A DNA stretch of 59,435 nt, from positions 1 to 59,435 of the IMG/VR virus record IMGVR_UViG_3300020401_000018, one strand, 5' to 3'. Position 1 is the stretch's first letter. Every line of letters begins with the position of its first letter. The notes beneath the pieces are model-generated. The model was given only the letters and a program-made list of their open reading frames with translations. It did no database searches and was not told the DNA's origin. Made by a program: the position numbers and the translations under genes. Source of the stretch: a virus (taxonomy: Duplodnaviria; Caudoviricetes). Below, in pieces: positions 5,312 through 53,464 of the stretch.

Positions 5312-5448
5312 TGAAAGCAGCGATAGTATCTGTCATTATATTTGCAATATCCGTAGCTTTAATCTTACACTATTCACCCTACGGCGGACAGCATAATCCA
5401 ATGGAATGGTTAATTTGGATATATAGAAATGTTAGTTGGAATCTTTAA
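5311..5448 (+). CDS. Small membrane protein (45 aa, not in ORF track)
   Basis: TAATG coupling; MKAAIVSVIIFAISVALIL. Confidence 0.5.
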   Translation: MKAAIVSVIIFAISVALILHYSPYGGQHNPMEWLIWIYRNVSWNL

Positions 5449-8400: not shown

Positions 8401-11400
8401 ATTTGGTAGCAAAGTTTCTGGCATGATTTGCCCACTTACCAAATAAACTTATATCTTTTAAACTAGCTTCTTTACCATCTTCAAATATTTTATCAGTAGC
8501 TTCTGCTGTATCTTTAAGTAATTTGTTACCTTCTTTTTGTTGCTGCCTGTTCATTGTTTCAGGTTTACTTAACTCATCATCTGCAACTGACTCTTGCATT
8601 TGCACTGATGCTTGATAGTTTATGTCTGTAAAATCTGGATTGCTGTTGAACTCAACCTCTTGTATTTGATTGCTATCAAAAACTATAAAAGATTCCTGTG
8701 CCCCTTTTTCTACTCCCCTATCAAAATCACCTGCACGCATGCCTTCAGCCATGTTAACATATACAATACCATCATAACCTCTTTCTTTTATTTTTTTTAC
8801 TAAGTAAGCTGACTGCATATTTTTGTAATTTTTAAACTGACTTTTACCCTCCATAAAGTTAGCCTCAATTTCTCCTAACGCACGAGATATTGCAGCATTT
8901 TCTTTTTCTGTAAATAGAACAGGAGAAACATCAATAGTGTTATAAAAAGTTCTAAAAGCTCTAAAGTTTTTACTGGTAGGTGTTTCAGTAAGCCTCTCTA
9001 AAACTTCAAATGTATCCCAGTTTCCCATGTCTGGCATCCTTAATGGATTGTTAATGTATAATATTGCTGTATTAATACTACCTAAATCTTCCTCAGTTGC
9101 TTCGTCTATATCAAAGCGACCATCTTGAAATAATACGCCGCCCGTTTTTGTTCGTCTTCCTACAACTGGTATTAGCGTAGTCTCTCCTCGCCTTACTTTC
9201 ATGTTGTATCTATCTTTTGCTTGCATTTCACTGCTTGCAAAATGCAAACCTAATTCACTAATTTTACCTGTTTCAAGCACAGGAATAGTTGAACCTTGAG
9301 AAGTAAAGTGATATGTCTTTTTAATAGAACCTGCTATTCTTAAATCAGATTCAGTCGGTAATGTAATTCTATTTAATCTGTTAGTAAATATTTCTACGCC
9401 TTGAGTTCTAGAATTTAAAGAAGCTAAAAGGTTCATCACTTGTCTTTGTGCCCTGGTTGCAGTCCCTAATTCCATAGCACTGAATGTTTCAAACTTGTCT
9501 GCAAAATTTAAATCTGCACTTTGTAAAGAAGCTATTGCTGCATTCAGTTCTTGAGAAGTTACTTTCTTTAGCTCTGCTAGATAATAATTAGCTTCACTTA
9601 TATTTGGTAGACCCACTTTAGTTGTAAGCGATTTCATTAAACCGTTTACTAACGCAGTTATTTTCCGTAAACTTGGATCAGTCATTAATCCCGTTCTTGG
9701 TTGTTGATATAATATGAATGAATTATATAAACCTATGTTATCTGTAATACTTCCTGTATTATATCCTGAATTTAATACTTTAGTTTTTTTAAGTCCTCTT
9801 TGTATAAATGCCTGGGCTTCGTCTACAGATATGCCTGCAGCTTTAGCTATGTTACTTATCTCTGTGGTTTCCATAACAGCTTTAGACATGATAGCTCGTC
9901 TTGCTATAACTGTGCCATAGTCTAATTTATCAAACACTTGATTGGCTCCATTTAATCCATTGTTTCTAAGTATATTCGCTAACGTAATTAAATAAGTTCT
10001 TATCCTTTCAAATACTCTACCTATTATACCTTTAGGACTATCTAATGCCCCATTTGGGGTGGTTGCCATATATTCTGCAAAGTAGTCAGAGATTGCTTCT
10101 TCTTCCATTTGACTTTGATTTAAACCAAACGGACCATATCTATTTTTAATGTTGTATCTATTAATTAAAGTTTTTCGAGCCGCATCACGTAATACGTTTT
10201 GTTCCTTTGGTGTTAATAAATTATTAAATATATAATGCATTGATTCATGATGCATGGTGTAACGTTGTGAATCTGCTAGCGCTATATTGTCAACAGGAGT
10301 AGTAGCATTCATAGCAACTTCAATTAAACCTAAACCTCCAAAGTATCTACCGTTTAATACTGTGCCCTCTTCTGTCATTATAGAATCAACTAATCTAATG
10401 CTAAGATTGTCTAGCCCTAGTTGATTAAGCTCTTTCTGAAACTGATCACTAATTACAGCCATTGACTTTATAGCTTCAAGTGATAGCTTTGGACGATCTA
10501 AAGAATTAGGATAGTTTGAGACACTCCAATAAGTATCTACATTTTTTTCGTACACATTTTCATCATACCCATATAACTCTTTTCTTATTTGTCTAATTTG
10601 TTTTTTAACTTTTTCTATTGTTTGAGCGCCAGGTATTCTTGGTTTGTTATCTTTAAAATTCAACAAAGGTTCTATGTTAAAACTTTCTAGTAAGGTATTT
10701 AATTCTTTTCTTTTTGCTAAAGAAACTTCTATTATATCTTGAAACTCTTGTATCTTTTCAGTCTGGTCTATGTAAGTTGCTTTTTGCTCATCAGTTAACG
10801 CTTCAACTTCCGCCGCTGAAAGACCTTCTGCCCCTCCCTTTCTTTGACTCTCTAAGAATTTTATTTCTTTCCTAGCTGTATCTACCATTATGTCTGAGTA
10901 AACAAATACAGTGCCTGTTCCGAATCTAATTAGTGGAGTGTATTCAGTTCTAGCCTTATCTAGTGCCCCTTGTAACGCATTTATTTCTATTTGATTTTTT
11001 TGTTTCTTAGCTATTTTTAAAGCAGCTCTAAGCATTTGTTTAGGATTAAACTTAATACCTTGGACATCTAATCTATTTAATATATCAACTATAGCATCTA
11101 TTCTTCCTAAAGCACTTGACGCTTCTAATACTCTAGCTTCTTTTTGAGTTTGTAAATCGTTTATCTGAATATTTATATCTCTTATATTTTGTTTATACGT
11201 AGGATCTTTTGTATCTAGATTTCTTTTTTGTAATCTTAACGATTGTATTTCTTCATCAACCTTTGCAGTTTCAAAGTCTGCTAGTTTTTGTTGCTGTGTT
11301 AAGTTTTCAAACTCTTGATCATTCCGCTGATTTAAAGGGGGCACCCTACGACTCTCTACTAAAGTTCTTGTACTTACTGTCATAGGCTCATATGGAATGC

Positions 11401-40392: not shown

Positions 40393-40653
40393 CTATACTT
40401 TGTAATCAGTTGTTCCTGAATAACCCACTCCCATTTTTTTCATATCTTTTGCAAACTTTTTATTAAGTTTTTTTAAAGTACTCTCATGTACTTTACTTGT
40501 CAACACTTTAGTTTCTACAGGCTTTGGTGTTCCCGCATCTACTTTTTTCTTTCTTCTAACACTTGGAATATCTATATTACCTTTGGATGCACCAGTGTGC
40601 CCCCGCATCAAACCTTCAATCTGCTTTAAATATTTTTCACTTTCTGTTGCCAT
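40393..40653 (-). CDS. Small basic protein ending GVGYSGTTDYKV
   Basis: ATG 40653 after AAGGA. Confidence 0.7.
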   Translation of the reverse strand: MATESEKYLKQIEGLMRGHTGASKGNIDIPSVRRKKKVDAGTPKPVETKVLTSKVHESTLKKLNKKFAKDMKKMGVGYSGTTDYKV

Positions 40654-40762
40654 CTTTTTCCTTTTTTGGTTTTCCCGTTTTAGGATCACACCCTACGCTT
40701 TGCCAAAACTCATCTAGAGCATTGGAAGATTCTTTAGGGGGTGGGGGTTTACGTTTAGCCAA
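40637..40762 (-). CDS. Small basic protein (41 aa, TTG start, not in ORF track)
   Basis: MAKRKPPPPKESSNALDEFW; fills gap in operon. Confidence 0.45.
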   Translation of the reverse strand: MAKRKPPPPKESSNALDEFWQSVGCDPKTGKPKKEKDGNRK

Positions 40763-40768
40763 ATACGT

Positions 40769-40936
40769 TTATTGTTTGTAATCTTCTGTCCCAGAATATC
40801 CTGCACCAGATTGTTTAGATTCAATTATCTTTCTTTTTAAATCAGGTGGTAATCTTTTTTGTTTATCGGTCAGAAACTTATCTTCTTTTGGTGTATCTTC
40901 TCCAGAAGTTATGCCGCCTTTTGTTATCTTGCCCAT
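40769..40936 (-). CDS. Small protein ending GAGYSGTEDYKQ (55 aa, not in ORF track)
   Basis: AAGGA SD; C-terminus matches that of 40393-40653. Confidence 0.65.
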   Translation of the reverse strand: MGKITKGGITSGEDTPKEDKFLTDKQKRLPPDLKRKIIESKQSGAGYSGTEDYKQ

Positions 40937-40937
40937 A

Positions 40938-41375
40938 TTATTCCTTCACTATTTTTAATTTAGGTGCAGCAATTTTTTGCAAGCGCTCAATATCTCTAGC
41001 GATATCTTCATCACTATTGCCTGTTGCAAATGCATTTTGTATCTCAGTAATATTTCTATCAGTCCACAACGCTTGATGTTTACCTAAAAGTTCTAAAGAT
41101 CTTATAGCTGCGTTGTAGTCCCCCTCTTGTTCAGTTCTTTCAGCAATTCTAACAAGACGGCGAAGAATGTCATCCGCTTCGATTTTTGTTCGTTTAATTG
41201 ATTCACCTTTTAATTCCGCTATTCTTTCAGAGATCCGAGCCTGACGAAGAAGTGTATAGGCATTCTTCTTCGCATGCTGGGTAGAATAACCCGCACGAAT
41301 TGCAGCCTGCACAGCATTTAAGTCTTTAATAAATTCATTGCAAAAGACTTCTTGTCTTTCGGTCAACTCTTTCAT
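40938..41375 (-). CDS. terS: Terminase small subunit
   Basis: LTERQEVFCNEFIKDLNAVQAAIRAGYS...LELLGKH. Confidence 0.93.
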   Translation of the reverse strand: MKELTERQEVFCNEFIKDLNAVQAAIRAGYSTQHAKKNAYTLLRQARISERIAELKGESIKRTKIEADDILRRLVRIAERTEQEGDYNAAIRSLELLGKHQALWTDRNITEIQNAFATGNSDEDIARDIERLQKIAAPKLKIVKE

Positions 41376-41399
41376 TAGGATCTCCAATTATTTTTTTAG

Positions 41400-41429
41400 A
41401 TTATAGCATAAATGTAGGTTGCAATGCAA
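41400..41429 (-). promoter_or_regulatory. sigma70-type promoter for the packaging operon
   Basis: TTGCAT-18 nt-TATAAT with extended TG. Confidence 0.7.
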
Positions 41430-41701
41430 CCCTGGTTAGTTTATAATTAACTTGTATCATGCAAGTGATACATCTCCTGTACAAGGGGAGGACTCCACAA
41501 GCGTACATAACACACACCACACTCTCTCTCACATTACGCTTCCTCCCCTTTCTCTCCACACAAAGGGGGCACGCCCGACCTTTTAAAAAAAAGTTCAAAA
41601 TTTGCTAAAATTTTTTGAGACGCATATAGTATAGTACTAGCTGTGCGTTTTTTTGGGTGGGGTATTTTTATTTTACCCCCACCCCCCAGACCCCCTGCCA
41701 G

Positions 41702-41718
41702 TTTAGAATGATTCTAAA
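41702..41718. promoter_or_regulatory. Irr box / iron control element (ICE)-like palindrome
   Basis: TTTAGAA-TGA-TTCTAAA, exact match to TTTAGAA-N3-TTCTAAA. Confidence 0.7.
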
Positions 41719-41750
41719 CTAGAGCTTGGTCAGGGTTGCCAGACCTATGA

Positions 41751-41765
41751 GAACAAAAGGTGAAC
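41751..41765. promoter_or_regulatory. Alphaproteobacterial LexA (SOS) box
   Basis: GAAC-AAAAGGT-GAAC = GAAC-N7-GAAC. Confidence 0.6.
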
Positions 41766-41830
41766 GAATTAAGGCAAGCAGGACGCTGGAACGTAAGGAA
41801 TTGCCTGCCAAAATGGCAGTGAATAGTGTA

Positions 41831-41858
41831 TTGACAGGTCTGAAAAAATCTGTATAAT
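41831..41858 (+). promoter_or_regulatory. Early sigma70 promoter
   Basis: TTGACA-16 nt-TATAAT. Confidence 0.85.
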
Positions 41859-41983
41859 GTGAGGTGTTCAAGACCTAGTTATTCCTTGTTGAAAACGGGT
41901 CAGATCGTTGCCAACTTGGCAAGAATTAGTGCTTGAACATTTTTTAAATGTGTGCATAATGTGTGTCAGAAAGTGAGGTTGTT

Positions 41984-42262
41984 ATGCGATCAAGTCAAGT
42001 GTGGAACAGAGTCAATCTGTTTACGGATCGAGGTGATGTCAAGGGTATGCCCAATCATTTCGACCATCAAACTGGTGAATGGGTCAAGTTGCCCAAACCA
42101 AACAAGTCGGAGGGCTACTGGAGAAGCCAAAAAGATATGTACCAAAATTGGAACTATCGTACCGCCTATCAGAAAAGCCTTCTGAAAGCTATGGGCAAGG
42201 CTCGAGGTAAGAACAGAAAAATGCTCATCAATGAGCTAAAAAGACAAGGGGTACAAGTATGA
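41984..42262 (+). CDS. First early gene, basic hypothetical protein
   Basis: GAGG SD before ATG 41984. Confidence 0.7.
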   Translation: MRSSQVWNRVNLFTDRGDVKGMPNHFDHQTGEWVKLPKPNKSEGYWRSQKDMYQNWNYRTAYQKSLLKAMGKARGKNRKMLINELKRQGVQV

Positions 42263-42617: not shown

Positions 42618-42702
42618 CTTGACAGAAAGCACGATATACTGTATGTGTGTCGTGTTTCCTATCAAGTCGGTAGGGTTAATTAAATAAATAAAAGAGGTGT
42701 TT

Positions 42703-44151
42703 ATGTTTAAATTAGACTATATATACTTCAGACGATTATTTAATAAATTGTGGAAAAAAGAAATATTTTACAATCAGTTTTCTGATAAATATTATTTTTC
42801 TGCATATATTAAATCGTATGTAAATGATAATAATACCCATCTTGATTATTACAAAGATGATGTTATGGGTCATTTCAGAACATACAATCAAGCTGAAGAA
42901 TTTTTTGATGAATTAAGGTCATTAAAAAATAAGATGTATCGTTTGTTAGTTGCAAAAAATGTTTTCGTAGGTGACTTTGGTATGGAGTATGTTCCATCTG
43001 ATGCTCCACTATGTAAACTATATCGAGCAGTTGACGATCTTGTTGATTATTTCAATGACAACAAATTTGAATTCTACAATCTTGCAGAATGTTCGTGTTG
43101 TGGCGAGGTTTGTGGATATGATGATACATTCTCAGCTTACAATGGAGATGAAACCGTAGGCGAGTGTTGTCAAGGCCAATACAGCTATTGTGATGAAGCC
43201 GATACCTATTTCAGAGATGATGACTATGAATCTTGGGAACAATACCAAGAACCATCTGACGAGGATTATGATTCAGGTTTTGAGGGTGTATATCGGTACG
43301 ATTGTGACCCATTGGATTATTTATACTTCATGCATACTAAATCAGAATCGTCCATACCCCGTCATAAACAAAGATGGTCAGGGCTTGAGATAGAGATGGA
43401 GGCTACGAGCAGATGTCCTGAAGATTTACCATTACAGATACGCAATGTTTTTAAGGATAATTATTGTATCTTCAAAAGTGATGGGTCGTTAAGTCATGGG
43501 TTCGAGCTAGTGTCTGCCCCTTGCACCTTAGCATACCACCGAGAACGAATTGAAGAATTATTTGATTCAGGTGTATTGCGTGATGATGAAGGCAAGGCAT
43601 TTGTCAGGGGTTGGAATACTGATACCGCAGGTATGCACATACATCTTGATCGTAAAATGTTATCATCAGTACAAGTTGGTAAACTGTTAGTGTTTATCAA
43701 TAATGAATTTAACAGATCATTTATTGAGAAAATTGCTGGTCGTTCAGAGACTTTCTACGAGGATTCTGACTGTACTTCCTACGCAGTTATGCGTAAGAAG
43801 AAAATCACAGATGGTGGTCAACGCAATTACAATAAGTATGAAGCGGTCAATCTGGCTCATTCAAGCACAGTTGAATTGAGAATCTTCAGAAGTAATCTGA
43901 CTAAAGATGGAATCATGCGAGCATTGGAGTTTAGCTATGCCCTTGTTGATTTCTTACAACAGAATACCTGCCGAGAATCTGATCAGCATTACAAGGAATT
44001 CTTGAAGTGGTTTAACCGATCACCTCAGAATCGTGCTAGTTATCCATACTTCTATGGTTGGCTAGTTCGTAAAGGTTATCTATCTGGTATACCTTCGAGG
44101 TCTATTACTAGACAATATGACCAAGCGATTGACGCAGTTGTCAATCAATAA
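42703..44151 (+). CDS. Amidoligase (glutamine-synthetase-fold COOH-NH2 ligase) with Cys-rich segment
   Basis: GLEIE, DGSL...FELVS, GMHIH, YEAVN, TVELRIF. Confidence 0.88.
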   Translation: MFKLDYIYFRRLFNKLWKKEIFYNQFSDKYYFSAYIKSYVNDNNTHLDYYKDDVMGHFRTYNQAEEFFDELRSLKNKMYRLLVAKNVFVGDFGMEYVPSDAPLCKLYRAVDDLVDYFNDNKFEFYNLAECSCCGEVCGYDDTFSAYNGDETVGECCQGQYSYCDEADTYFRDDDYESWEQYQEPSDEDYDSGFEGVYRYDCDPLDYLYFMHTKSESSIPRHKQRWSGLEIEMEATSRCPEDLPLQIRNVFKDNYCIFKSDGSLSHGFELVSAPCTLAYHRERIEELFDSGVLRDDEGKAFVRGWNTDTAGMHIHLDRKMLSSVQVGKLLVFINNEFNRSFIEKIAGRSETFYEDSDCTSYAVMRKKKITDGGQRNYNKYEAVNLAHSSTVELRIFRSNLTKDGIMRALEFSYALVDFLQQNTCRESDQHYKEFLKWFNRSPQNRASYPYFYGWLVRKGYLSGIPSRSITRQYDQAIDAVVNQ

Positions 44152-44181
44152 CTTTTAACTTTAGAGAAAGGAAAGTGTGTT

Positions 44182-45051
44182 ATGTGCTTAATTATACAAA
44201 CTGATACACCTAAAAATCTCAATCGAGATTTATTAGAGTGTGCTTACGAAAACAATTCTGATGGCTTTGGACTTATGCTATTCAATCAAGGCAAGGTTCA
44301 TACCCACAAAATTGTACCAAAAACTTTCGCTGATGTAGAAAAAATGTGGAAGTCATACAAGGATATGGACATTCCTATGGCTTTACATTTTAGATTCAAT
44401 ACGCATGGCGAAACTAATCGAGCTATGTCTCACCCATTTCAAGTTCTTAATAAACAAGATCATGGAAGAGATTTATGGCTCATGCATAATGGACCAAACT
44501 TGCCTACACCTATGATTGATAAAGGTAAGTCTGACACCCATCAATTTATCAAGTGGATTATCAAACCACAACTAGCCAACAATCCTAACTTGCTATACAA
44601 TCTTGAATGGCAAGAATCGTTGGGCGAGATGATTGGTACAGATAAGCTAGTGTTCTTAGATGGTAAGACAAAAGAATTTACGATCATCAACTCTGATGAA
44701 GGTAAAGATGTCAAGGGAATTGGGTGGCTATCCAATACCTATTCTATTAGTAGAGGACTTGGGTATAACTATGATGTAGTCAACAATAAGAAATCTGTGA
44801 TTCAATATGGTAAGAAAACTAGCTATGGTGGACTTGCTTGGGACGATTGGCAGTATGGAGATGACGCATACAAATATGATGATATCTATGGTACGGCTTC
44901 TAAACCTGATGAAAATTCATGGTTTAATATCACAGATGAAATGCTTGTGGGGGCAAGTCTCGAGGATATCGAAGATCTGGTTGTCTCGAATCCTCAAGGT
45001 GTAGCCGACTATCTATTTGATCTTTGTGCTTACAGAATGTCAAATAAGTAA
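44182..45051 (+). CDS. Class II (Ntn) glutamine amidotransferase
   Basis: N-terminal Cys (MCLII); NSDGFG; HFRFNTHG; HPF; MHNG; SDT. Confidence 0.9.
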   Translation: MCLIIQTDTPKNLNRDLLECAYENNSDGFGLMLFNQGKVHTHKIVPKTFADVEKMWKSYKDMDIPMALHFRFNTHGETNRAMSHPFQVLNKQDHGRDLWLMHNGPNLPTPMIDKGKSDTHQFIKWIIKPQLANNPNLLYNLEWQESLGEMIGTDKLVFLDGKTKEFTIINSDEGKDVKGIGWLSNTYSISRGLGYNYDVVNNKKSVIQYGKKTSYGGLAWDDWQYGDDAYKYDDIYGTASKPDENSWFNITDEMLVGASLEDIEDLVVSNPQGVADYLFDLCAYRMSNK

Positions 45052-45071
45052 TAGGGTATCGCCCCAAAGCA

Positions 45072-45278
45072 TAACACCGAAAGAACACCGATTGAATACC
45101 GATTGGACACGATCTGTCAAGGGGGGCAGATGTAATGATTAGTATGTATTGTCCAAAGATATATACTATATATTGTAATAATAATATATTAATAATCGTA
45201 TATTATATAGCAGTACAGGGGTGTCATACCCCAAATCGTTGCCATTCGGTAATCACTCGGTGCTTGTTCGGTGATATA
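45072..45278. other. Putative replication origin
   Basis: ACCGA x3 and TCGGT x3, each at 11-bp phase, converging on an AT-rich core. Confidence 0.6.
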
Positions 45279-45292
45279 CGAAAAGAAAACTA

Positions 45293-45320
45293 TTGAAAAA
45301 TATTTTATATATGATATAAT
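45293..45320 (+). promoter_or_regulatory. sigma70-type promoter
   Basis: TTGAAA-16 nt-TATAAT with extended TG. Confidence 0.7.
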
Positions 45321-45325
45321 ACGAA

Positions 45326-45642
45326 ATTGAAAGCGACAGTTAAAGCCTTCGTTGACTTGGTTTATTGACTGACATAATCAACCTCGCCAAGTACATCATT
45401 GGTAAGACAATGTAGTTTTAATTGAGTGTGGCTACTCAATCGCTTTCATGCCACTAGATACATTTGGTCGAGCGAAACAAGTCGTACTCGTACAGGAGAT
45501 AAGAGCCAAAGAGAAGTGGTGTGGCGAAAGTTTATGTATCTATTTTGCCACAAACCTAACTATGTGTGTGCAGTTAGTTTGAATCTTGGGGGCAACAGTA
45601 TTGCCAAGCGAGTTCTCGTTAGCCAATCGTTGTTACCCCACA
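45326..45642 (+). ncRNA. Candidate ~320-nt structured RNA of unknown class
   Basis: Promoter upstream; at least 7 helices including a 9-bp pseudoknot; no credible ORF until 45660. Confidence 0.55.
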
Positions 45643-45659
45643 ATTATGGAGATAAAAGT

Positions 45660-45863
45660 ATGGGAGAAATATGGGGAATGAGTAAAACATTATTTGGAGT
45701 TTACTTTATATTAGGAATTATATGGGCATGGGCATTGATTGCTGTGTTTCATGCTGTGACAGATTCACAGCGTAGTATAGCACAATCAATCGACTTACCT
45801 GAAATAGTTGACACAGTATCAACGATACCTGTTGATGTTTATAAGTTAGAAAGAGAAAACTGA
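45660..45863 (+). CDS. Small membrane protein
   Basis: GGAG SD; hydrophobic helix. Confidence 0.65.
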   Translation: MGEIWGMSKTLFGVYFILGIIWAWALIAVFHAVTDSQRSIAQSIDLPEIVDTVSTIPVDVYKLEREN

Positions 45864-45864
45864 T

Positions 45865-46032
45865 ATGGACAAAACTGCTAATCCAAATATTGTCAAGGTA
45901 GGTTTTTTAATTTCGCAGGAAACCTACGAAGAGATGAAACGAATATGCGAACTAAAAAATATGCAAGAGAATAACTTTGTTGAATTAGCAATAGATGATT
46001 TATGTTTCTTGCACAGAAAGATGGAGGCTTAA
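45865..46032 (+). CDS. Ribbon-helix-helix-like DNA-binding protein (55 aa, not in ORF track)
   Basis: VKVGFLIS strand, ETYEEMKRIC and NNFVELAIDD helices. Confidence 0.55.
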   Translation: MDKTANPNIVKVGFLISQETYEEMKRICELKNMQENNFVELAIDDLCFLHRKMEA

Positions 46033-46033
46033 A

Positions 46034-46213
46034 ATGAGTGGAGTAAAAAATTGGTTGATGGAAATGCAAGAGTATTCACAATACATTTTAGAGGTGCGTG
46101 ATGTACCGACTGCAAGAAAAATGTTTATTGATAAGTATGGGCAATCGCAACTGCATGTCTTTGAAGATGAAGTAGAAAGGGCTTACGATTATGAAAACAC
46201 ATACGCATACTAA
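46034..46213 (+). CDS. Hypothetical protein
   Basis: GGAGG SD; MSGVKNWLMEMQE. Confidence 0.75.
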   Translation: MSGVKNWLMEMQEYSQYILEVRDVPTARKMFIDKYGQSQLHVFEDEVERAYDYENTYAY

Positions 46214-46646
46214 AAAAGATTTCTTGCCTGCTTACTTTCGTAATGCTAGGTGCATTAGATATATCTCGCCTCTCTATGATTACGAAGATGATTGGGAAGA
46301 TGACGAGGGATATGTTCATGAGGGCGACAGAGTTTGTATCAATGAAGATGAATATACAAACCACACTGCTCTAGCTCGTAAAGTACATGAAGAAAATAAA
46401 CCATTGTATTTTTTCAGACGAACTTTGCCACATGCCAAGTGGAGTCATCAGCATTTATCATCTCTAGTTAAAAGATGTAATCTACCTTTAAAGGTTGCAC
46501 GATTTAATCGTCGAGTTTTGATTATACCTAGCGATCAACATTTAGAAATTACTGAAAGTCTTTTGAATAAAAAGATTAATAAAAAGATTGACAGTAGAAA
46601 AGAAAGAAAGTATAATACAGATATGGAGATTAGTTTTGAGCAATAA
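46191..46646 (+). CDS. Hypothetical protein
   Basis: 151-aa ORF in operon. Confidence 0.65.
   Translation: MKTHTHTKKDFLPAYFRNARCIRYISPLYDYEDDWEDDEGYVHEGDRVCINEDEYTNHTALARKVHEENKPLYFFRRTLPHAKWSHQHLSSLVKRCNLPLKVARFNRRVLIIPSDQHLEITESLLNKKINKKIDSRKERKYNTDMEISFEQ
46588..46616 (+). promoter_or_regulatory. sigma70 consensus promoter
   Basis: Perfect TTGACA-17 nt-TATAAT. Confidence 0.8.
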
Positions 46647-46995
46647 AATCAAAGAGTTAGATAAAGTAAAGGTTGGCTTTGCCGATATTAAAATAGATAG
46701 AGTTACTGCTTCTTTTACTAAGAACAATGCCGATTGTTGGGGGCAGTATCTGTCTCGTGAAAACAGAATTGAAATACAAAAAGAAGTTGACGGAATTGAC
46801 TATGCGAATACATTACTACATGAGATAATGCATGCCATAGTTTATCTGTCTTCGTTAAATGCTGACGGAGGTGCATTGAAAGAAGATGACAACGAGGAAC
46901 AAGTCACCAACACTTTGACGAATTGGTTGATGGGAGTGTTCCGTGATAATCCAAAACTACTTGACATAATTAAAAGAGAGGTGACGAAACTATGA
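46636..46995 (+). CDS. Small zincin metallopeptidase-like protein
   Basis: TLLHEIMHAI plus downstream EE; GGAG SD then TTG. Confidence 0.8.
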   Translation: MSNKIKELDKVKVGFADIKIDRVTASFTKNNADCWGQYLSRENRIEIQKEVDGIDYANTLLHEIMHAIVYLSSLNADGGALKEDDNEEQVTNTLTNWLMGVFRDNPKLLDIIKREVTKL

Positions 46996-47096
46996 CAAAC
47001 GGAGATCCTAATTTATTTGTTATTGCTATCATCATGGGAGTGACCATGTCAGCTTTGTTGTGTATTGATCCTGTGGCTAGGGTAATAGGACTATGA
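46992..47096 (+). CDS. Small membrane peptide (34 aa, not in ORF track)
   Basis: ATGA coupling at both ends; GAGG SD. Confidence 0.5.
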   Translation: MTNGDPNLFVIAIIMGVTMSALLCIDPVARVIGL

Positions 47097-47674
47097 GAGA
47101 ATTTTTACTTCCAGAATCAAGTGGCATGCATGCATGGTATATTGCTGATAGCTTGTGTGATGAGATCATACACTATTTTGAAAAGTCAGAGATGAAAGAA
47201 CGAGGGGTATGTGGTAAGATAGAATATAAACCTGATGTAAAAGATTCCACAGATGTCCCATTAAATCCTAACAGATTTTTATACGAAAGATATACTGAAG
47301 AATTAAATCGTGGCTTGGGTGAGTACATGAATAAATTTAATTTATTACATACCGTTGGTAAGTTTGATGATAGCAGAGAAAATACTTTAATACAAAAGTA
47401 TTATCCTAATCAAGGCTTTCATAAAATGCATTGTGAGCAAAGTCACATACACCCTTGGCGATTAGTTGTTTTCATGACATACTTAAATAATGTACCTAGA
47501 GGCGGCACTAGATTCCGTCATCAGGGTATAGACTTGCCTTGTGAAAAAGGTTTGACAGTGCTTTGGCCTGCTGGATATACACATGCTCATGCAGGTATAA
47601 CCAATTCAAATGGTTCAGCAGGTATTACGGAAACAAAATACATTGTAACAGGCTGGCTATCATATGTCGAATAA
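47093..47674 (+). CDS. 2OG-Fe(II) oxygenase
   Basis: HCE...YLNNV..GGT...THAH...KYIVTGW. Confidence 0.88.
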   Translation: MREFLLPESSGMHAWYIADSLCDEIIHYFEKSEMKERGVCGKIEYKPDVKDSTDVPLNPNRFLYERYTEELNRGLGEYMNKFNLLHTVGKFDDSRENTLIQKYYPNQGFHKMHCEQSHIHPWRLVVFMTYLNNVPRGGTRFRHQGIDLPCEKGLTVLWPAGYTHAHAGITNSNGSAGITETKYIVTGWLSYVE

Positions 47675-48068
47675 TTTTTTTAATCCAAATAATATAGATT
47701 TATTTGTATATGGTACACTTAAAAAAGATTTAAGACTGCACGGCTTAGTCGAGGATCATAAGTTTTTGGGAGAGTTTACGACTGCCCCCAAGTATGATAT
47801 CCTTGACTATGCTAACGGAATATTTCCTATTGTCTTTAGAAAAGATAATGGATTTAAAATAAAGGGAGAACTATACTCAGTACACCCTGCTCAATACGAA
47901 TACATTTACTTGATGGAAAGGGGGGCAGGATATGTACCAGAACCAGTGTTGCTCGAACCTCATGACTTAAAAGCTACTATGTTTATTCATACAGGCGAGC
48001 CTAATGATGAATGGTTATCAGATGAATATGTAAGCATTAAAGATAACATTAAAGAATGGAGAAACTAA
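47664..48068 (+). CDS. Gamma-glutamylcyclotransferase (GGCT/AIG2-like)
   Basis: FVYGTLK...IKGELYSV...MERGAGY. Confidence 0.88.
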   Translation: MSNNFFNPNNIDLFVYGTLKKDLRLHGLVEDHKFLGEFTTAPKYDILDYANGIFPIVFRKDNGFKIKGELYSVHPAQYEYIYLMERGAGYVPEPVLLEPHDLKATMFIHTGEPNDEWLSDEYVSIKDNIKEWRN

Positions 48069-48226
48069 TGCTTGACATGATAGCACAAATTATGATATGG
48101 ACTTCTACGTATGGCATATTCATACTATTAACGATCGGAGCAATCGCAACTATTCCTCACCCTGTATCCATTGGGTGGCTTTGTTGGGCTGCTTTGTTTA
48201 CATTTCACTTAATAAGGAGAAACTAA
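48068..48226 (+). CDS. Small membrane protein (52 aa, not in ORF track)
   Basis: TAATG coupling; two hydrophobic segments. Confidence 0.55.
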   Translation: MLDMIAQIMIWTSTYGIFILLTIGAIATIPHPVSIGWLCWAALFTFHLIRRN

Positions 48227-48228
48227 CC

Positions 48229-48462
48229 ATGAAAAAATATAAGAAAAACTATTCAGATAAAGAGATCTTATTAGATCAAGCTTTGGACGAATTAGAATTG
48301 ACAGGCACACTAGATGATATATATCATGATGTATCTGGCAATAATACATTAGATGATTTAGATGATTATGAATATCAACAGGAGCAAGCATATGGCATAC
48401 AATCCAAGAACCTACAATTTATACCGACAGACAGATATATCAAACGCACTAGAAAAGGCTGA
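48229..48462 (+). CDS. Hypothetical protein with acidic core
   Basis: AAGGAG SD before ATG 48229. Confidence 0.65.
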   Translation: MKKYKKNYSDKEILLDQALDELELTGTLDDIYHDVSGNNTLDDLDDYEYQQEQAYGIQSKNLQFIPTDRYIKRTRKG

Positions 48463-48709
48463 GAGATATCTAGCAGAGAACGAATCTTCGGTTGTCATAA
48501 AAAGTGACAAGCCTTTTAGTTTGGCCATGCGGTTTGGTAGATACATAAAAGCATTCAAAGAACAGATGAAGAATGTGGAAGATGTAGACGAACGCAAGTA
48601 TGATACACTTATGATAACCCATGATGATGACCAAGTAAAAATTACACATGCATTAGAAGTTGACCAATTAGAATTGTTTGACGAAGCAACTGGAGGTAAA
48701 ATTGAATGA
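48392..48709 (+). CDS. Hypothetical protein
   Basis: GGAG SD; MAYNPRTY. Confidence 0.7.
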   Translation: MAYNPRTYNLYRQTDISNALEKAERYLAENESSVVIKSDKPFSLAMRFGRYIKAFKEQMKNVEDVDERKYDTLMITHDDDQVKITHALEVDQLELFDEATGGKIE

Positions 48710-48903
48710 ACACAAAAACAGAATACTACTTGACGAGCGATCGTAATCGTAATATAATCGTAACTACAACTAATTTAGATGAGCTACGTGTGGTTAGAGA
48801 TAAATTAAATAGGCTAGACAAAGATTACTTAAAGAAATCTAAAAGGTCTTTACATGCTGTAAACTTTAAAATTGAAAGGACAAGTGATGACAAAGAAAAC
48901 TAA
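48706..48903 (+). CDS. Hypothetical protein
   Basis: GGAGG SD; coupled. Confidence 0.7.
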   Translation: MNTKTEYYLTSDRNRNIIVTTTNLDELRVVRDKLNRLDKDYLKKSKRSLHAVNFKIERTSDDKEN

Positions 48904-49222
48904 AAAGCGAAGTGATATGGCCATGTATGTAGATGAGGTAGACCAATGTATAAAAGCATTTGATGTTCCTGTCAGGGAAATGTGTGAAAAGTTTCCGCCG
49001 AATGTGGTCATGGCTTCCATGCTAGAGGTATCACTACGAATGTTTTTACTAGCGACAGGATCAGCAGGTGTATTAAAGATATTCTCTGGTTGCGTTAGTA
49101 ATGTATCCACCATGGGTCCGTTGGTAGATGCCATGTTAGCCTCTGGACAAACAACAGATCCTTTAAACTTTAAAGAATTTGCTAACTTAAATATAGTCCC
49201 AGAAGATGAGACATTACATTAG
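48887..49222 (+). CDS. Hypothetical protein
   Basis: AAGGA SD. Confidence 0.7.
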   Translation: MTKKTKKRSDMAMYVDEVDQCIKAFDVPVREMCEKFPPNVVMASMLEVSLRMFLLATGSAGVLKIFSGCVSNVSTMGPLVDAMLASGQTTDPLNFKEFANLNIVPEDETLH

Positions 49223-49230
49223 GAGATAAC

Positions 49231-49449
49231 ATGAAAAGAAAATATAAAGTTGTATTTACACACATGAACACCACGCATTGGGAAGTCGAAGCATACGATA
49301 AAGATGAGGCGACACGCAAGGGTTTAGAATTATCTGAAAAATTTAAGTGGTCACATTCAGCCATGCAATATCTACACCCAGATAAAACCAAACAACTTAT
49401 AACTGTGCCAGACATACAACTACTGGCAGTAGAGGAGCAAGTAGAATGA
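49231..49449 (+). CDS. Hypothetical protein
   Basis: AGGAG SD. Confidence 0.7.
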   Translation: MKRKYKVVFTHMNTTHWEVEAYDKDEATRKGLELSEKFKWSHSAMQYLHPDKTKQLITVPDIQLLAVEEQVE

Positions 49450-49676
49450 GTGAAGAAGAACGCATTGAAATACCCAGTGAATACTTGGAGATGGATCCCA
49501 AGGAGTTAGCTGAGAGCGAGGTAGGTATTCAGAAGGTAATTGAATATCTTCGTGGCACTAGGGAAAACATAAGGGCGGCCGAGAAAGCAGGTAAAAGAAT
49601 TACTGCTAAAGCTGCAACCACTAAACCAAAACAGTTTGAGGGAGATCCGCTGGCTGTTTTACTAAAGGATACGTGA
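49446..49676 (+). CDS. Hypothetical protein
   Basis: GAGGAG SD; coupled. Confidence 0.75.
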   Translation: MSEEERIEIPSEYLEMDPKELAESEVGIQKVIEYLRGTRENIRAAEKAGKRITAKAATTKPKQFEGDPLAVLLKDT

Positions 49677-49677
49677 T

Positions 49678-49824
49678 ATGGCAAAGAAATGGAAATCATA
49701 TTCTGCTCACGAAGCAGGACCAAAGAAAAGAACAAGTATAGGTAATAGTATACGAAGTAAGCCAAAGAATAAACATAAGCGACGTAGTTATAAAAAATAT
49801 AAAGGGCAAGGAAAACGAAGATGA
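49678..49824 (+). CDS. Small basic protein (48 aa, not in ORF track)
   Basis: KRTSIG...KKYKGQG; AAGGA SD. Confidence 0.65.
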   Translation: MAKKWKSYSAHEAGPKKRTSIGNSIRSKPKNKHKRRSYKKYKGQGKRR

Positions 49825-50399
49825 CACAAAAAGAAATACAAGAAGGAATTACAGAGACAGTAGGAACATTCCACCCATTTGTTCCTAATTATGGATACCA
49901 CCAATGGAAACTAAAAGGTGAAAGGGATAAATATCTAGCTGACTATTTAATGCTAAGACACAATCAAGGTAGGTTTATTTCCAATGATTATTCAACACCG
50001 CTGAGTGAGGACTTGCGAATAGATGCTGAACACCCTGATGTGTCGTCAGCCGTAGAAGAAATAATGTCACATATAAAAACTGTTAATCCTAAATTAAAAC
50101 TAATGACTAATCAGTTTGGGCAACCAGAGATATGGGGTCAAGTAAATATGAAAGGCGGATCAACTGCCATGCATAAGCATGACGATTGTTTTGCGTTTGT
50201 GTATTATGTTAATGCCCCCGTTGATGGAGGTATGCTTAAGTTTTACATTAACTATGATACAATGTCTCATGTTTGTACTACAGAGCCTGTATCTAAATGT
50301 TTATTGTTTTTCCCTGGTTGGGTTCCGCATTTTACTATGCGAAATCAATCTGACTCACCAAGGATAGTTCTTTCTGGTAACGTAATATTTGGAGATTAA
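49821..50399 (+). CDS. Putative 2OG-Fe(II) oxygenase (HxH type)
   Basis: WGQVN...HKH...VYYV...FPGWVPH...RIVLSGN. Confidence 0.85.
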   Translation: MTQKEIQEGITETVGTFHPFVPNYGYHQWKLKGERDKYLADYLMLRHNQGRFISNDYSTPLSEDLRIDAEHPDVSSAVEEIMSHIKTVNPKLKLMTNQFGQPEIWGQVNMKGGSTAMHKHDDCFAFVYYVNAPVDGGMLKFYINYDTMSHVCTTEPVSKCLLFFPGWVPHFTMRNQSDSPRIVLSGNVIFGD

Positions 50400-50400
50400 A

Positions 50401-51087
50401 ATGACTCAACAATCAAAGCAACTGTTCTGGAAATTTTCTAATGCTTTCACTAAAGAGTTGAGAGATCTTGTGATTAAAGATTTAGACAATGATAATCTTA
50501 GATCAGCAGAAACTTATCAAAGAGATTTGCAACAGGACGTACATAAACATGGCGTAGAAAAGAACATACGAGATGCGAGCACTACAACTTTAGATAACAA
50601 AGATATAAATGATCATATATCTAACATGATGACTATTGCAAATAAACGAGCAGGCTGGGATTTTGATATTGCTGTGAATGAGAAGATGCAATTTATAAAA
50701 TATAAACCAGGAGGACATTTCCGTCCTCATACTGATACAAGTTTTCAGGGACCAAGTGCAACATTTCAATGGAAAGATGATGCACCCAATGAAGGATTTA
50801 AGGTTATACAAATAGCAGATGCATATTTGTTAGGCAATGTAAGAAAGATTAGTTCTACACTTCTGTTAAATGATAATTTTTCTGGAGGTGGTATGTCTCT
50901 TTATTACATAGCCGTGCAGGATAAAGAAAGTTCAAACTGGACCTTGGGCATTGAAGAAGTTCCTTTAGATTTAAAAGCTGGTGATTTAATTTTCTTTCCG
51001 TCTGGAGTATGGCATGGTATAAAGCCTGTAACAAATGGGACACGATATTCTTTAGTAACTTGGTTCGGAGGGCCACCAATAAAATGA
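50401..51087 (+). CDS. 2OG-Fe(II) oxygenase (prolyl-hydroxylase/PKHD-like)
   Basis: HTD...RKIS...FPS...HGIKPVTNGTRYSLVTW. Confidence 0.9.
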   Translation: MTQQSKQLFWKFSNAFTKELRDLVIKDLDNDNLRSAETYQRDLQQDVHKHGVEKNIRDASTTTLDNKDINDHISNMMTIANKRAGWDFDIAVNEKMQFIKYKPGGHFRPHTDTSFQGPSATFQWKDDAPNEGFKVIQIADAYLLGNVRKISSTLLLNDNFSGGGMSLYYIAVQDKESSNWTLGIEEVPLDLKAGDLIFFPSGVWHGIKPVTNGTRYSLVTWFGGPPIK

Positions 51088-52070
51088 TGGATGATGGTAT
51101 TGGATATATAGAAGCACCTAAGTTTCCAAAGTATGTATGGTTGGAAGGAGGCAATGCTAAACAAATGGTATGGGACACGTCTAGCCTTTCAGCATTTAGT
51201 TCGTGCCCCCGTTACTATAACTATCAAAATATTTTAGGCTATAAATCTAAAGTATATAGTACCGCAACTGGTTTTGGATCAGCTGTTCATGATGGTTATG
51301 AGCAACTAGACTATGGTCGCTTTATGGGTAGGTCTAAAGATCAATGTGTGGCTGATGCGATTAAGTTAGTTCTTGTTGAACACGGCGAAGACTTGAGTAA
51401 GTCTGATGATAAGGCAAGAAATTTAGAAGCGGCCTTACGTGCTATTGTCTGGAGGGCTGAGGAATATTGGGAAGATACAATAAAGATTGCCACTATGCCT
51501 GATGGAACCCCTGCTTTAGAGCAAAGATTTGAAGTACCTATAAATGAAGATGGTGTTAGATTTTCAGGACGTATCGATAAGGTAGCAGAGTTAAATGACG
51601 AATTGTATTTAGTTGACACTAAGACTACTAAAGCAAGTTTAACTGATTATTATTTCAATCAGTTTGCACCTAACAATCAAATATATGCGTACCTTTGGGC
51701 GGCTAGACATATATTAAAATTGCCTATTGCAGGCTTTATTATTGACGCAGTACAAACTGGTGTAAATTTTTGCAGATTTAATCGTGCAGTATTCAAAGTA
51801 CCGTCTGCCATTATTGACGAATGGTATGGTGATGCAATACATAAATTATCTATGGCAAAAATATATGCTGATAAAAATTATTATCCTGCGGACTTTACTG
51901 CTTGTGGAAACTATGGAGGGTGTAAGTATAGAGAGATTTGTAATGAGACACCAGAGCACAGAGGAAGAGTTATTGAAGAGTTGTTTGATAGAGAAATTCA
52001 TGAGGACTTACGCAAAGATAATGTTGTTGAGTTACCTCAAGAAATGGAAATAGAGTTTATACCTGAATAA
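51084..52070 (+). CDS. PD-(D/E)XK exonuclease (RecB/AddB/Cas4-like, probable Fe-S)
   Basis: GRID...VDTKT...QIYAY; N-terminal CP plus three C-terminal Cys. Confidence 0.88.
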   Translation: MMDDGIGYIEAPKFPKYVWLEGGNAKQMVWDTSSLSAFSSCPRYYNYQNILGYKSKVYSTATGFGSAVHDGYEQLDYGRFMGRSKDQCVADAIKLVLVEHGEDLSKSDDKARNLEAALRAIVWRAEEYWEDTIKIATMPDGTPALEQRFEVPINEDGVRFSGRIDKVAELNDELYLVDTKTTKASLTDYYFNQFAPNNQIYAYLWAARHILKLPIAGFIIDAVQTGVNFCRFNRAVFKVPSAIIDEWYGDAIHKLSMAKIYADKNYYPADFTACGNYGGCKYREICNETPEHRGRVIEELFDREIHEDLRKDNVVELPQEMEIEFIPE

Positions 52071-52075
52071 AGTTA

Positions 52076-52103
52076 TTGACTTTTATTTTTATTACTATAT
52101 AAT
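52076..52103 (+). promoter_or_regulatory. sigma70-type promoter for replication genes
   Basis: TTGACT-16 nt-TATAAT. Confidence 0.7.
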
Positions 52104-52115
52104 ACGGATTAAAAG

Positions 52116-52670
52116 ATGAGTATTAATATTATAGACGATTTTATATCTGGTGTGGATCAGACTAGATTGGAACAAGCCATCTTAACAGATGAGTCTATTC
52201 CTTGGAACTACAGGGCTAGTCCTAATCACAATCTAGATTCAACTAACAATGGAGATTTTGTTCATAGGGTTTTTGCTTTTGATATTTCTAATTCGTTTTA
52301 TCATATCAATCCTTATATGTTAGATGTTATGAGTCCTTTGATGGTTCGCCTTGGATCGGATTACTTGAGACAAATCAAGATTAATATATATCCAAGATCA
52401 GATACTTTAATGGAACATGCTCCGCATGTAGATAAACTTGATTTTCAGAATAATAATACGTTGCCGTGGCAAGGAGAACAGGAGTACAGCTTGATATATT
52501 ATGTAAATAACAATGATGGATACACTAAATTTTATCCTGATAATGAAGACCCAGTTGCTGTAGAAAGTAAGAGGGGCAGAATAGTTTATACAGATGTTCC
52601 AACTGTACACAATAGCACTACTTGCACTAATGCAAATGTAAGATGTACAATTAATTTTAACTTTAGATAG
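52116..52670 (+). CDS. 2OG-Fe(II) oxygenase
   Basis: PHVD...YYVNNNDGYT...HNSTT...RCTINFN. Confidence 0.85.
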   Translation: MSINIIDDFISGVDQTRLEQAILTDESIPWNYRASPNHNLDSTNNGDFVHRVFAFDISNSFYHINPYMLDVMSPLMVRLGSDYLRQIKINIYPRSDTLMEHAPHVDKLDFQNNNTLPWQGEQEYSLIYYVNNNDGYTKFYPDNEDPVAVESKRGRIVYTDVPTVHNSTTCTNANVRCTINFNFR

Positions 52671-52678
52671 GAGAGAGA

Positions 52679-53464
52679 ATGGCAAACATATCAAAACATA
52701 TATCAGCAGACGTAACCAAATTATTATTGGTAGGCGACAGTGGTTCTGGAAAGACAGCAGCACTAGCTGCACTAGCTAATGCAGGTAAAAATTTACGTAT
52801 ATTAGATTATGATGATGGTCTAGATATACTGCCAGACCTGCTTACACCAGAGGGGGTTAAACGAGTTTCATATGTAACCTTAAAAGATTCTATAGGAAAA
52901 GCTGATGCCTTTAGAAAAGGGGTTAACTTAATTTCGAATTGGAAAGATGGAGATGAAGATTTTGGATCAGTAAAAACTTGGACTAAAGATGACGTGCTAG
53001 TTATTGATAGTCTTACACTGATGGGAGAGGCGGCACTCAGAGGGGCACTTGTATTTAATAACAAGAAACCCACTGAGCAACCAACTCAACCAGAGTGGGG
53101 AACTGCCGCACGAGATGTGCAGTATATTATCCAGTATATAACTGGTTCAGAAGTTCCGTGTAATGTTGTGGTTACAACCCACATGCAATATATGGAAGGC
53201 GATTTGGGTATTAGCAAATCATACCCAACTAGTGTTGGCTCAAAGCTATCTACAAAATTGGGTCGATACTTTAACTGTGTTTGTAGAGTGGACACTAAGA
53301 GTTCTAGCAAAGGCACAGAGAGAACACTGCGGACTGTATCGGATCACAAGATGGATCTAAAAGTACCGACTCTAAATGCTATAGAGCCGAATGCTGAGTT
53401 GGATTTAGTTAAGTTATTCGATGCAATCCAAAGTAACTCAAAGAAGAAGTTGTCAATTAAATAG
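52679..53464 (+). CDS. RecA-fold ATPase (Sak4-like recombinase)
   Basis: GDSGSGKT; LVIDSLT; adjacent to exonuclease and SSB. Confidence 0.8.
   Translation: MANISKHISADVTKLLLVGDSGSGKTAALAALANAGKNLRILDYDDGLDILPDLLTPEGVKRVSYVTLKDSIGKADAFRKGVNLISNWKDGDEDFGSVKTWTKDDVLVIDSLTLMGEAALRGALVFNNKKPTEQPTQPEWGTAARDVQYIIQYITGSEVPCNVVVTTHMQYMEGDLGISKSYPTSVGSKLSTKLGRYFNCVCRVDTKSSSKGTERTLRTVSDHKMDLKVPTLNAIEPNAELDLVKLFDAIQSNSKKKLSIK

Follow-up and report, generated by a model that had tools for sequence, protein, structure and literature searches.

The 59,435-bp IMG/VR record IMGVR_UViG_3300020401_000018, analysed here at its full length and called the window, carries a LexA-like direct repeat, GAACAAAAGGTGAAC (41751..41765, plus strand), within a 608-bp intergenic region (41376..41983) that separates the two divergent gene arms of an uncultured phage. 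This repeat, the GAAC box, is the two-unit member of a family with an 11-bp period and the strongest of the motifs; it recurs in 19 of 20 related intervals, and the element is apparently an undescribed, widespread repeat of marine phages. The interval is a real, densely built transcription control region, in which promoters are interspersed with the GAAC box, an ICE-like palindrome and two palindromes with a TGCCA core. The best explanation, to which we assign an overall probability of about 0.45, is a lytic-type marine podophage that uses the host RNA polymerase. Host LexA would bind the GAAC box, and early phage transcription would be coupled, or at least exposed, to the host SOS state.

A first-pass annotation of the window had described the four motifs as host transcription-factor boxes through which the phage might read host iron and DNA-damage status. 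All four motifs were found when the sequence was re-read, and the assignment of the first two to the ICE and LexA consensuses agrees with excerpts of the literature (PMC1698941 for ICE; PMC3323433, PMC9578287 and PMC8565304 for LexA). As a whole, the host-status reading was borne out in that the regulatory cluster is real and includes a LexA-like box, and it fell short in that the ICE-like palindrome is confined to the near clade and the TGCCA palindromes are local.

Conservation of the GAAC box in related phages

Searching IMG/VR with TerL gave 213 confirmed relatives, from which 80 loci were kept (TerL 76-100% identical). Thirty loci with at least 650 bp upstream of terS, the gene for the small terminase subunit, were combined with the window to give 31 homologous intervals, which were reduced to 20 by dereplication (12-mer Jaccard <0.5). 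The strict form of the box, GAACAAA-N4-GAAC, is expected 0.047 times per window; it was present in 29 of the 31 intervals (19/20 dereplicated), at one to four copies per related interval and in either orientation. Without the window, the 30 related loci hold 48 strict boxes in 21,496 bp of interval sequence as against none in 209,711 bp of flanking sequence, where the bare form GAAC-N7-GAAC occurs twice. The window itself holds one bare box with about one expected under a first-order Markov model, which is not significant; the box is taken as real because it is conserved in 19/20 intervals, and not because of its count in the window. Among the boxes of the first-pass annotation, the LexA-like one is therefore kept in the interval of relatives, the ICE palindrome partly so (exact in 4/20), and the TGCCA palindromes are not (2/20).

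Two other identities for the box were set aside. A reading as the start of a small open reading frame (ORF; ATGAGAACAAAA...) was dropped because the box is found on either strand and in more than one copy, and the Bacteroidetes SOS motif CTAA-N5-TTAG was rejected on account of its opposite half-site order.

Spread of the GAAC box in other phages and in bacterial contigs

Scanning IMG/VR with GAACAAAACGWGAAC returned at least 119 stretches. Among the matches listed, strict boxes number between 2 and 15 in 26 of 79 new loci analysed, commonly at a spacing of exactly 11 bp, and the GC content of box-bearing contigs ranges from 0.21 to 0.57. The repeat unit is 11 bp long and starts with GAAC, and each array is closed by a final GAAC. 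A search of 15 whole records gave 40 tightly clustered matches to the pattern, compared with 2 to a reversed control.

Carriers of the window's own terminase family include two records (G005 and G009) and four loci (L137, L151, L155 and L156). The box is also found in G004, a 115.7-kb record with a TerL of 48% identity to that of T5-like Vibrio phages, which holds eight boxes, at its two ends only (loci L220 and L221), and in G007, whose TerL is 58% identical to that of T4-type Sinorhizobium phages. Neither G004 nor G007 has a blastp-detectable ORF in common with the window, and no common ORF was detected between G000 and G004 or G007 (blastp E <= 1e-3; 27.7 kb of G004 compared). Within 2.5 kb of the arrays, no gene family except the terminase genes is common to the 156 loci compared. 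The occurrence of the box in phages with unrelated terminases and no common ORF favours a host binder, and judged from these sequences the box would most likely be bound by a host protein common to the hosts of unrelated phages.

Among cultured phages, the SAR11 myophage HTVC008M gave 5 matches versus 1 for the control, and a BLAST search with an array as query gave one useful match, a 19-nt stretch in HTVC008M only. Two of the HTVC008M boxes lie in gaps of a small-gene cluster (L470, 911-960 and 2501-2560): one stands 10 bp upstream of a TTGACA-17-TAGGAT promoter, and the other is followed by the palindrome GTGCGATATGTCGCAC, which is of the GCGACA...TGTCGC type seen in the window's relatives. 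In HTVC008M, G007 and L164 alike, several of the gaps that separate small early genes contain boxes, and the terminase genes lie far away. A separate arrangement was observed in L101 (G005, 52.9-56.4 kb), where repeated modules combine a box array with a conserved ~50-bp segment after it; the modules flank a small ORF with a helix-turn-helix-like product (MTDKTLSVAALARELKIDPKIARRRMR...), which could be a phage regulator in that lineage.

A scan of metagenomes for the box returned at least 120 stretches, 72 of them intergenic by an ORF test among the matches listed. Thirty ORFs flanking intergenic boxes were scanned with Pfam, and ten with NCBIfam; 15 of the 30 have no family. Two encode the N-termini of DNA polymerase III alpha, on contigs L305 (GC 0.63) and L344 (GC 0.51). 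On both, a promoter holds the identical 15-mer in the spacer between its two hexamers (-35 and -10), and a hydrophobic ORF of ~30 amino acids (aa) and then dnaE come after it. By analogy, this layout looks like that of an SOS-induced SidA-type peptide together with dnaE, which sidA presumably adjoins in Caulobacter. SidA is a 29-aa SOS-induced membrane protein of Caulobacter (PMC4211646), and dnaE is reported as SOS-regulated there in an excerpt of PMC3323433. Three further flanking ORFs encode alkaline phosphatases (L278, L323 and L261; GC 0.56-0.61), with the exact 15-mer ~80-100 bp upstream and an extra GTTC 17 bp further upstream.

The ICE-like palindrome

The second motif is a perfect 21-nt palindrome, AGTTTAGAATGATTCTAAACT (41700..41720), which has a 7-1-7 core, TTAGAAT-N-ATTCTAA. 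An excerpt of PMC1698941 gives ICE as TTTAGAA-N3-TTCTAAA, and the window matches it exactly at 41702-41718; excerpts of PMC1698941 and PMC2864753 further attribute an Irr ortholog to P. ubique. The exact core occurs once in the window, whereas 0.0024 occurrences are expected (first-order Markov), and with up to two mismatches it occurs twice with 1.33 expected, which is not an enrichment. Among the homologous intervals it is exact in 4/31 (4/20 dereplicated) and present with up to two mismatches in 10/31 (7/20), all ICE-core intervals belonging to the clade whose TerS is at least 80% identical. In this near clade the palindrome usually follows the last promoter and precedes the ribosome-binding site of the first early gene. 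ICE boxes lie upstream of iron, haem or Fe-S genes; here a 92-aa ORF that belongs to no family comes next, and the 2OG-Fe(II) oxygenase genes begin more than 5 kb downstream.

Scanning IMG/VR with TTTAGAA-N3-TTCTAAA returned at least 123 sites in at least 119 contigs, and among the matches listed 90 sites are intergenic by the ORF test. The spacer is biased towards T-N-A (among those matches, TGA 18, TCA 16, TAA 10 and TTA 9 of 123), so the real motif is the 7-1-7 palindrome TTAGAAT-N-ATTCTAA. Boxes of the Fur family, of which Irr is a member, have such a 7-1-7 layout. The ICE-type element is widespread in low-GC marine phages. Among the ICE-bearing contigs listed, ten have a recognisable TerL; eight of these proteins share 70-91% identity with that of HTVC023P or HTVC027P, which places the element in pelagiphage-type genomes; the palindrome is absent from the cultured HTVC023P and HTVC027P isolates themselves. 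BLAST searches with the long palindrome gave mostly partial AT-rich matches in Flavobacteriia phages, and exact cores were found only in the Polaribacter phage Danklef_1. A LexA-like box lies within 800 bp of just 2 of the 123 ICE sites among the matches listed, so the ICE and GAAC elements are not a fixed pair.

Sequence variants of the palindrome keep its pairing. In L006, L007 and L061 both arms change together to give the symmetric form TTGAGAAT-G-ATTCTCAA, and in L018 the variant TTTGGAAT...ATTCTAAA is wobble-compatible, with G-U pairing kept. As RNA, the palindrome folds at -9.3 kcal/mol (z -3.8), and with its flanks it forms a hairpin of 9-11 bp at -9 to -12 kcal/mol (z -3.8, -3.9 and -2.1). 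It is a putative second operator, with Irr or another Fur-family protein as candidate binder, or a putative RNA hairpin on the early leader. From sequence, we rate it about as likely to be an Irr/Fur-type site as a site for a phage repressor or a hairpin in the leader RNA.

The TGCCA palindromes

Two palindromes, CTGCCAAAATGGCAG (41805..41819) and TTGCCAACTTGGCAA (41908..41922), share the core TGCCA-N3-TGGCA, which is found exactly twice in the window, 103 bp apart and both times in the control region, against 0.05 expected. From the end of the first core it is 12 bp downstream to the -35 hexamer at 41831, and from the end of the second, located from the sequence and the promoter scan, 11 bp to that at 41933. 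The first-pass annotation had set both around a single promoter; each instead lies just upstream of a different -35 hexamer. If transcription starts ~7 nt after the -10 hexamer, the palindromes would be centred near -52 or -53. The motif is restricted to the window's nearest clade (3/31 intervals, 2/20 dereplicated), and more distant clades have other palindromes in its place, and also TTATCCACA. The sites and their turnover between clades fit a phage-specific dimeric regulator of the last two early promoters; the palindromes would be sites of a dimeric regulator specific to a narrow phage clade, probably encoded by the phage. A sigma54 promoter at the second palindrome was rejected, the GG-to-GC spacing being off by one in our own count.

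Candidate binders of the GAAC box

From the motifs, their conservation, enrichment and spread, and the promoter geometry, all of them observed, we infer the binders, the direction of regulation and the host. Excerpts of three sources give the alphaproteobacterial LexA box as the direct repeat GTTC-N7-GTTC (PMC3323433, PMC9578287, PMC8565304), and GAACAAAAGGTGAAC is such a repeat, GAAC-N7-GAAC being the same motif on the opposite strand. The phage box thus has the tetranucleotide and the spacing of the SOS box, and the identical 15-mer stands as a promoter-embedded operator in the two bacterial small-peptide/dnaE operons. SAR11 encodes lexA, recA, umuDC, fur and irr (PMC2864753; PMC12753301), and its SOS genes rise during HTVC027P infection (PMC12753301); the phage itself has no lexA gene. 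Host LexA is the leading candidate binder, with a chance that we would put just short of even. The GAAC box would then be a marine-phage element of 11-bp units bound by LexA, one of three kinds of operator that would lie among the promoters, several of which, of the sigma70 type, would fire rightwards into the early genes and one, presumably, leftwards into terS.

A number of observations weigh against host LexA and the host-status reading in general. In the window, no recognisable promoter overlaps the GAAC box, from whose end it is 65 bp to the closest downstream -35 hexamer, whereas a LexA operator lies within or across the promoter that it represses, as the box does on contigs L305 and L344; placed upstream of promoters and not across them, it may act by modulation or by titration of LexA instead of simple occlusion. 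Arrays of up to eight units are atypical for LexA, because in Caulobacter just one LexA box is present at ~97% of the SOS promoters (preprint 10.1101/2025.01.26.634973), and they look more like the sites of a polymerising phage protein or a response regulator. The box was not found in nine other cultured phages, two Roseobacter phages included, among them HTVC023P (first 50 kb), HTVC027P, 023Pt_psg01, DSL-LC04, CRP-810, CRP-901 and the Sinorhizobium phages phiM12 and phiN3. Pfam recognised no LexA, RecA, UvrA or ImuA among the 30 box-flanking metagenome ORFs, and the alkaline phosphatase contigs hint at a Pho-type regulator. The genomes of 185,579 species yielded no close relative. As for Irr, two exact ICE cores occur in Danklef_1, whose Polaribacter host belongs to the Bacteroidota, which are not known to have Irr, and the pairing-keeping variants of the palindrome would be a better fit to an RNA hairpin or a co-evolving phage protein than to a fixed host factor.

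Binding by regulators of the phage's own is rather unlikely by our estimate. A small protein would polymerise on the 11-bp repeats in the manner of Cox/Apl/Xis or ribbon-helix-helix proteins, a Cro- or repressor-like dimer would occupy the palindromes, the early-to-late switch would be timed in this way, and the likeness to the LexA and Irr consensuses would be coincidence. Exactly phased arrays of three to eight units, as opposed to the single boxes of Caulobacter, would be natural on these terms, as would palindrome types that turn over between clades (TGCCA in 2/20 intervals, elsewhere GCGACA...TGTCGC or TTGTTGTAAAAATACAACAA) and an ICE palindrome with a symmetric two-arm variant, and the window offers two weak candidates for the protein, also for the regulator of the TGCCA sites, in an Arc-like PHROG match (ORF 45865-46032, E 0.002) and an HTH_8 motif in a 431-aa ORF (2451-3746). 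However, no ORF family is common to the array-bearing genomes (blastp E <= 1e-3 or 1e-4, a comparison in which small proteins diverge fast) and none but terminase genes recurs beside the arrays, ten ORFs (nine small early ones and ORF 40393-40689 of the packaging arm) were without a DNA-binding Pfam domain, and the same 15-mer is found inside bacterial dnaE promoters. Less probable again, and unlikely in absolute terms, is a different host regulator of the OmpR/PhoB response-regulator type, bound head-to-tail on the phased repeats, by which the phage would read nutrients such as phosphate. Host PhoB controls pstS in cyanophages, and the PHO boxes of Actinobacteria are made up of 11-nt units of the GTTCAC type. 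The geometry of 4-6 bp cores with an 11-bp period and variable number suits such a protein, the 15-mer precedes alkaline phosphatase genes in L278, L323 and L261, and in HTVC008M and at the window's early promoters a box stands just upstream of -35, a place typical of activators. Against this, the sequence around the box is nearly the same in the three phosphatase contigs, which therefore probably represent one lineage, no other Pho-regulon gene occurs among the 30 flanking ORFs scanned, and the proteobacterial Pho box, which is of the CTGTCAT type, differs from the GAAC box.

A role in DNA transactions, with the elements as terminase pac/cos repeats near terS or as replication-origin iterons at or near a genome end, is the least probable of these explanations and in our view very unlikely. 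The interval does adjoin terS, and TTATCCACA, which we take to be the DnaA-box consensus, occurs one to three times in each of L030, L037, L040, L042, L049, L062, L074 and L075 (8/20 intervals; 13/31 undereplicated); the window is without it. Beside TTATCCACA stand the palindromes TTGTTGTAAAAATACAACAA and GCGACA...TGTCGC, which may mark a replication origin or the use of DnaA. Forty related contigs contain the start of terS and break off on its upstream side; in 27 of them the break lies 150-1150 bp from terS, a pile-up that is confounded by short contigs. In an independent marine DNA run, a unitig over 41549-41880 has a k-mer depth of 34 and its neighbours 9-14, with variant loose ends at 41898 and 41902; this segment could be common to co-occurring variants or repeated, and the DNA unitigs overlap across the whole interval. 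The T5-like G004 has boxes at both record ends, which is suggestive of a genome-end role for G004 only, whereas the boxes of HTVC008M, G007 and L164 lie far from terminase genes. In G004 an identical box sequence was observed at 17-31 and 115547-115561, which suggests a terminal repeat or a pre-early region. The first-pass annotation had placed the cluster at the probable leading end of the genome; neither this placement, examined on assembled contigs, nor its suggestion that host proteins shield or pull in the first-injected DNA found support.

Relation to known systems and implications

The comparison with the SOS box, while close in repeat and spacing, has its limits. The phage box lies upstream of promoters and not across them, and AAA(A/C) is strongly conserved after the first GAAC; other phages multiply the unit into arrays of up to eight, whereas Caulobacter chromosomal promoters mostly have one box. 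Phages whose lytic genes are under direct control of host LexA include CTXphi, the Bacillus tectivirus GIL01 (with gp7) and coliphage 186 (with tum); they are temperate or plasmid-borne, and their boxes overlap promoters. The likeness is that a phage without a cI-type repressor of its own could sense DNA damage through boxes for host LexA; control of phages by host LexA is mentioned in general terms in PMC9578287. The present phage differs in that no integrase, partition gene or repressor was found among 47 scanned ORFs and in that its box stands off the promoter.

For the ICE-like palindrome, the match to the ICE/Irr box of Rhizobiales, Rhodobacterales and P. ubique is exact, and the T-N-A preference in phages fits the 7-1-7 layout of the Fur family; unlike that box, the phage site lies away from iron genes, is limited to the near clade and also occurs in a Bacteroidota phage, and its variants keep pairing. 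Zeng and Chisholm reportedly described in 2012 host Pho boxes in cyanophage genomes that control single auxiliary genes. There, as possibly here, host physiology is read by a lytic marine phage through sites for one of the host's regulators, but here the sites occupy the main early control region and are common to several phage families. Direct repeats about one helical turn apart, in variable number and either orientation, are also typical of Cox/Apl/Xis arrays and of the iterons of plasmid ParR; the GAAC arrays resemble these in their phasing and differ in that no homologous phage binder was found.

A tentative proposal, somewhat unlikely in our judgement, is that many uncultured marine phages of the unrelated podo-, T4-like and T5-like types that infect SAR11 and other Alphaproteobacteria have wired their earliest genes to host LexA and, in some lineages, Irr, by which a strictly lytic phage would sense DNA damage and the iron or haem status of its host, or that the arrays titrate LexA and thereby turn on the host SOS response during phage replication. 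If true, this would be a repressor-free decision circuit borrowed from the host, in the most abundant virus-host systems of the ocean. Host-regulator boxes have so far been known from a few temperate phages (LexA) and from single cyanophage auxiliary genes (PhoB); to these is now added one short direct-repeat element, found in arrays where many uncultured marine phages, and one cultured SAR11 phage, have their early control regions. No description of the element was found in searches of the literature on LexA in Pelagibacter, roseophages, pelagiphages or marine phages, and the words 'LexA', 'promoter' and 'intergenic' are absent from the HTVC023P-type genomics paper. If host LexA binds the box, infection by apparently lytic phages would depend on or manipulate the host SOS state, which would bear on pseudolysogeny, delayed lysis and SOS induction during pelagiphage infection (PMC12753301). 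The 15-bp marker could also help to assign hosts to uncultured phages, with HTVC008M on Pelagibacter HTCC1062 as a cultured test system.

Layout of the control region

The control region runs from terS on the minus arm to the first early ORF on the plus arm, and is delimited by the ORF lists, a sign change in GC skew and an excess of promoters. At 608 bp it is longer than the gap of about 230 bp that the first-pass annotation gave. On the plus strand it holds six sigma70-like sites (TTGACA/TATAAT, 16-18 bp spacing) compared with 1.6 +/- 1.3 in shuffles, which makes it a cluster of sigma70-type promoters. The strongest, TTGACA-16-TATAAT (41831..41858, plus strand), agrees with the consensus at 12 of 12 positions; it had been taken for the first sigma70 promoter, and is one of the six. 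No terminator-like site was detected by a scan of the region, and an EcfG-type promoter reading was considered and dropped.

Rightwards from terS the elements are back-to-back promoters, a structured element, an A-tract with a further promoter-like site, a G-run/C-run repeat, the ICE-like palindrome and the GAAC box. There follow the first TGCCA palindrome, 12 bp, the promoter at 41831, the second TGCCA palindrome, 11 bp, the promoter at 41933 and the first early gene. The back-to-back promoters (41400..41447) have a palindrome in common, TTGCAATGCAA, and their pattern is kept in the intervals of relatives that were inspected. The plus-strand member, TTGCAA-17-TATAAT (41419-41447), was identified by the promoter scan; the minus-strand member, TTGCAT-18-TATAAT, lies within the same coordinates, was read by eye, is absent from the scan list and would drive terS. 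The promoter-like TTGCTA-17-TATAGT after the A-tract (41602..41630, plus strand) was likewise found by the scan and is kept in the inspected intervals of relatives. The last site before the first early gene is TTGAAC-16-CATAAT (41933..41960, plus strand), also from the scan, for which relatives have a homologous TTGATT...CATAAT.

The structured element (41471..41577, plus strand) consists of three stems and a CA/CT-rich loop, and RNAalifold on eight relatives gave 16 pairs, four of them compensatory. Its four G/C-rich segments (TCTCC, GGGGAGG, CCTCCCC and GGGGG) allow alternative pairings in the manner of an attenuator, and no Rfam family was found in the interval, this element included. The G-run/C-run inverted repeat GGGTGGGG ... 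CCCCCACCCC (41655..41687) is not a terminator according to the scan; a G-run of the TTTTTGGGGTGGGGGG type (41650-41690) is kept across clades down to 72% TerS identity, with the complementary C-run following in the window. RNA-library contigs cover part of terS only (40933-41303) and are uninformative on transcription of the interval.

The phage genome and its relatives

The record is classed as linear, with a CheckV completeness estimate of 100%, a GC content of ~36% and a tRNA gene count of 0. No RNA polymerase, integrase, partition gene or cI-type repressor was found among the 47 window ORFs scanned, with the virion arm at 14059-36229 outside the scan, which agrees to that extent with the first-pass annotation, in which no integrase or cI-like repressor had been recognised. 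The nearest cultured TerL proteins are those of the Pelagibacter phages HTVC027P and HTVC023P (40% identity), and the nearest DNA polymerase is that of Caulobacter phage Kuura (36%). Neither megablast nor blastn gave a nucleotide match of the region to cultured phages. A TerL search of bacterial genomes returned only relatives of 29-32% identity in non-proteobacterial records, and therefore gives no handle on the host.

Beside the control region, terS (40938..41375, minus strand; ATG at 41375, listed ORF to 41387) was identified by Pfam Terminase_2 (E 5e-25), and its products in relatives are 72-100% identical. The first early ORF (41984..42262, plus strand; 92 aa, without a family) has a 69% identical ORF at the same place in L005, in a comparison that is one base out of frame. 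The rightward arm extends from 41984 across the record end to 5311. Its products include an amidoligase, a GATase-like protein, a gamma-glutamyl cyclotransferase and four 2OG-Fe(II) oxygenases (42697-53464, plus strand), an unusual load of iron-dependent enzymes near the ICE-like box; they further include a PD-(D/E)XK nuclease, an AAA_24 protein, a UDG/exonuclease, a family-A DNA polymerase, a DUF3987 primase/helicase-type protein and a class II ribonucleotide reductase. The leftward arm, from 41387 to 5432, encodes TerS (Terminase_2), TerL, a portal-sized ORF, virion proteins and a 2860-aa protein (5432-14014, minus strand), which has a weak ART-PolyVal match.

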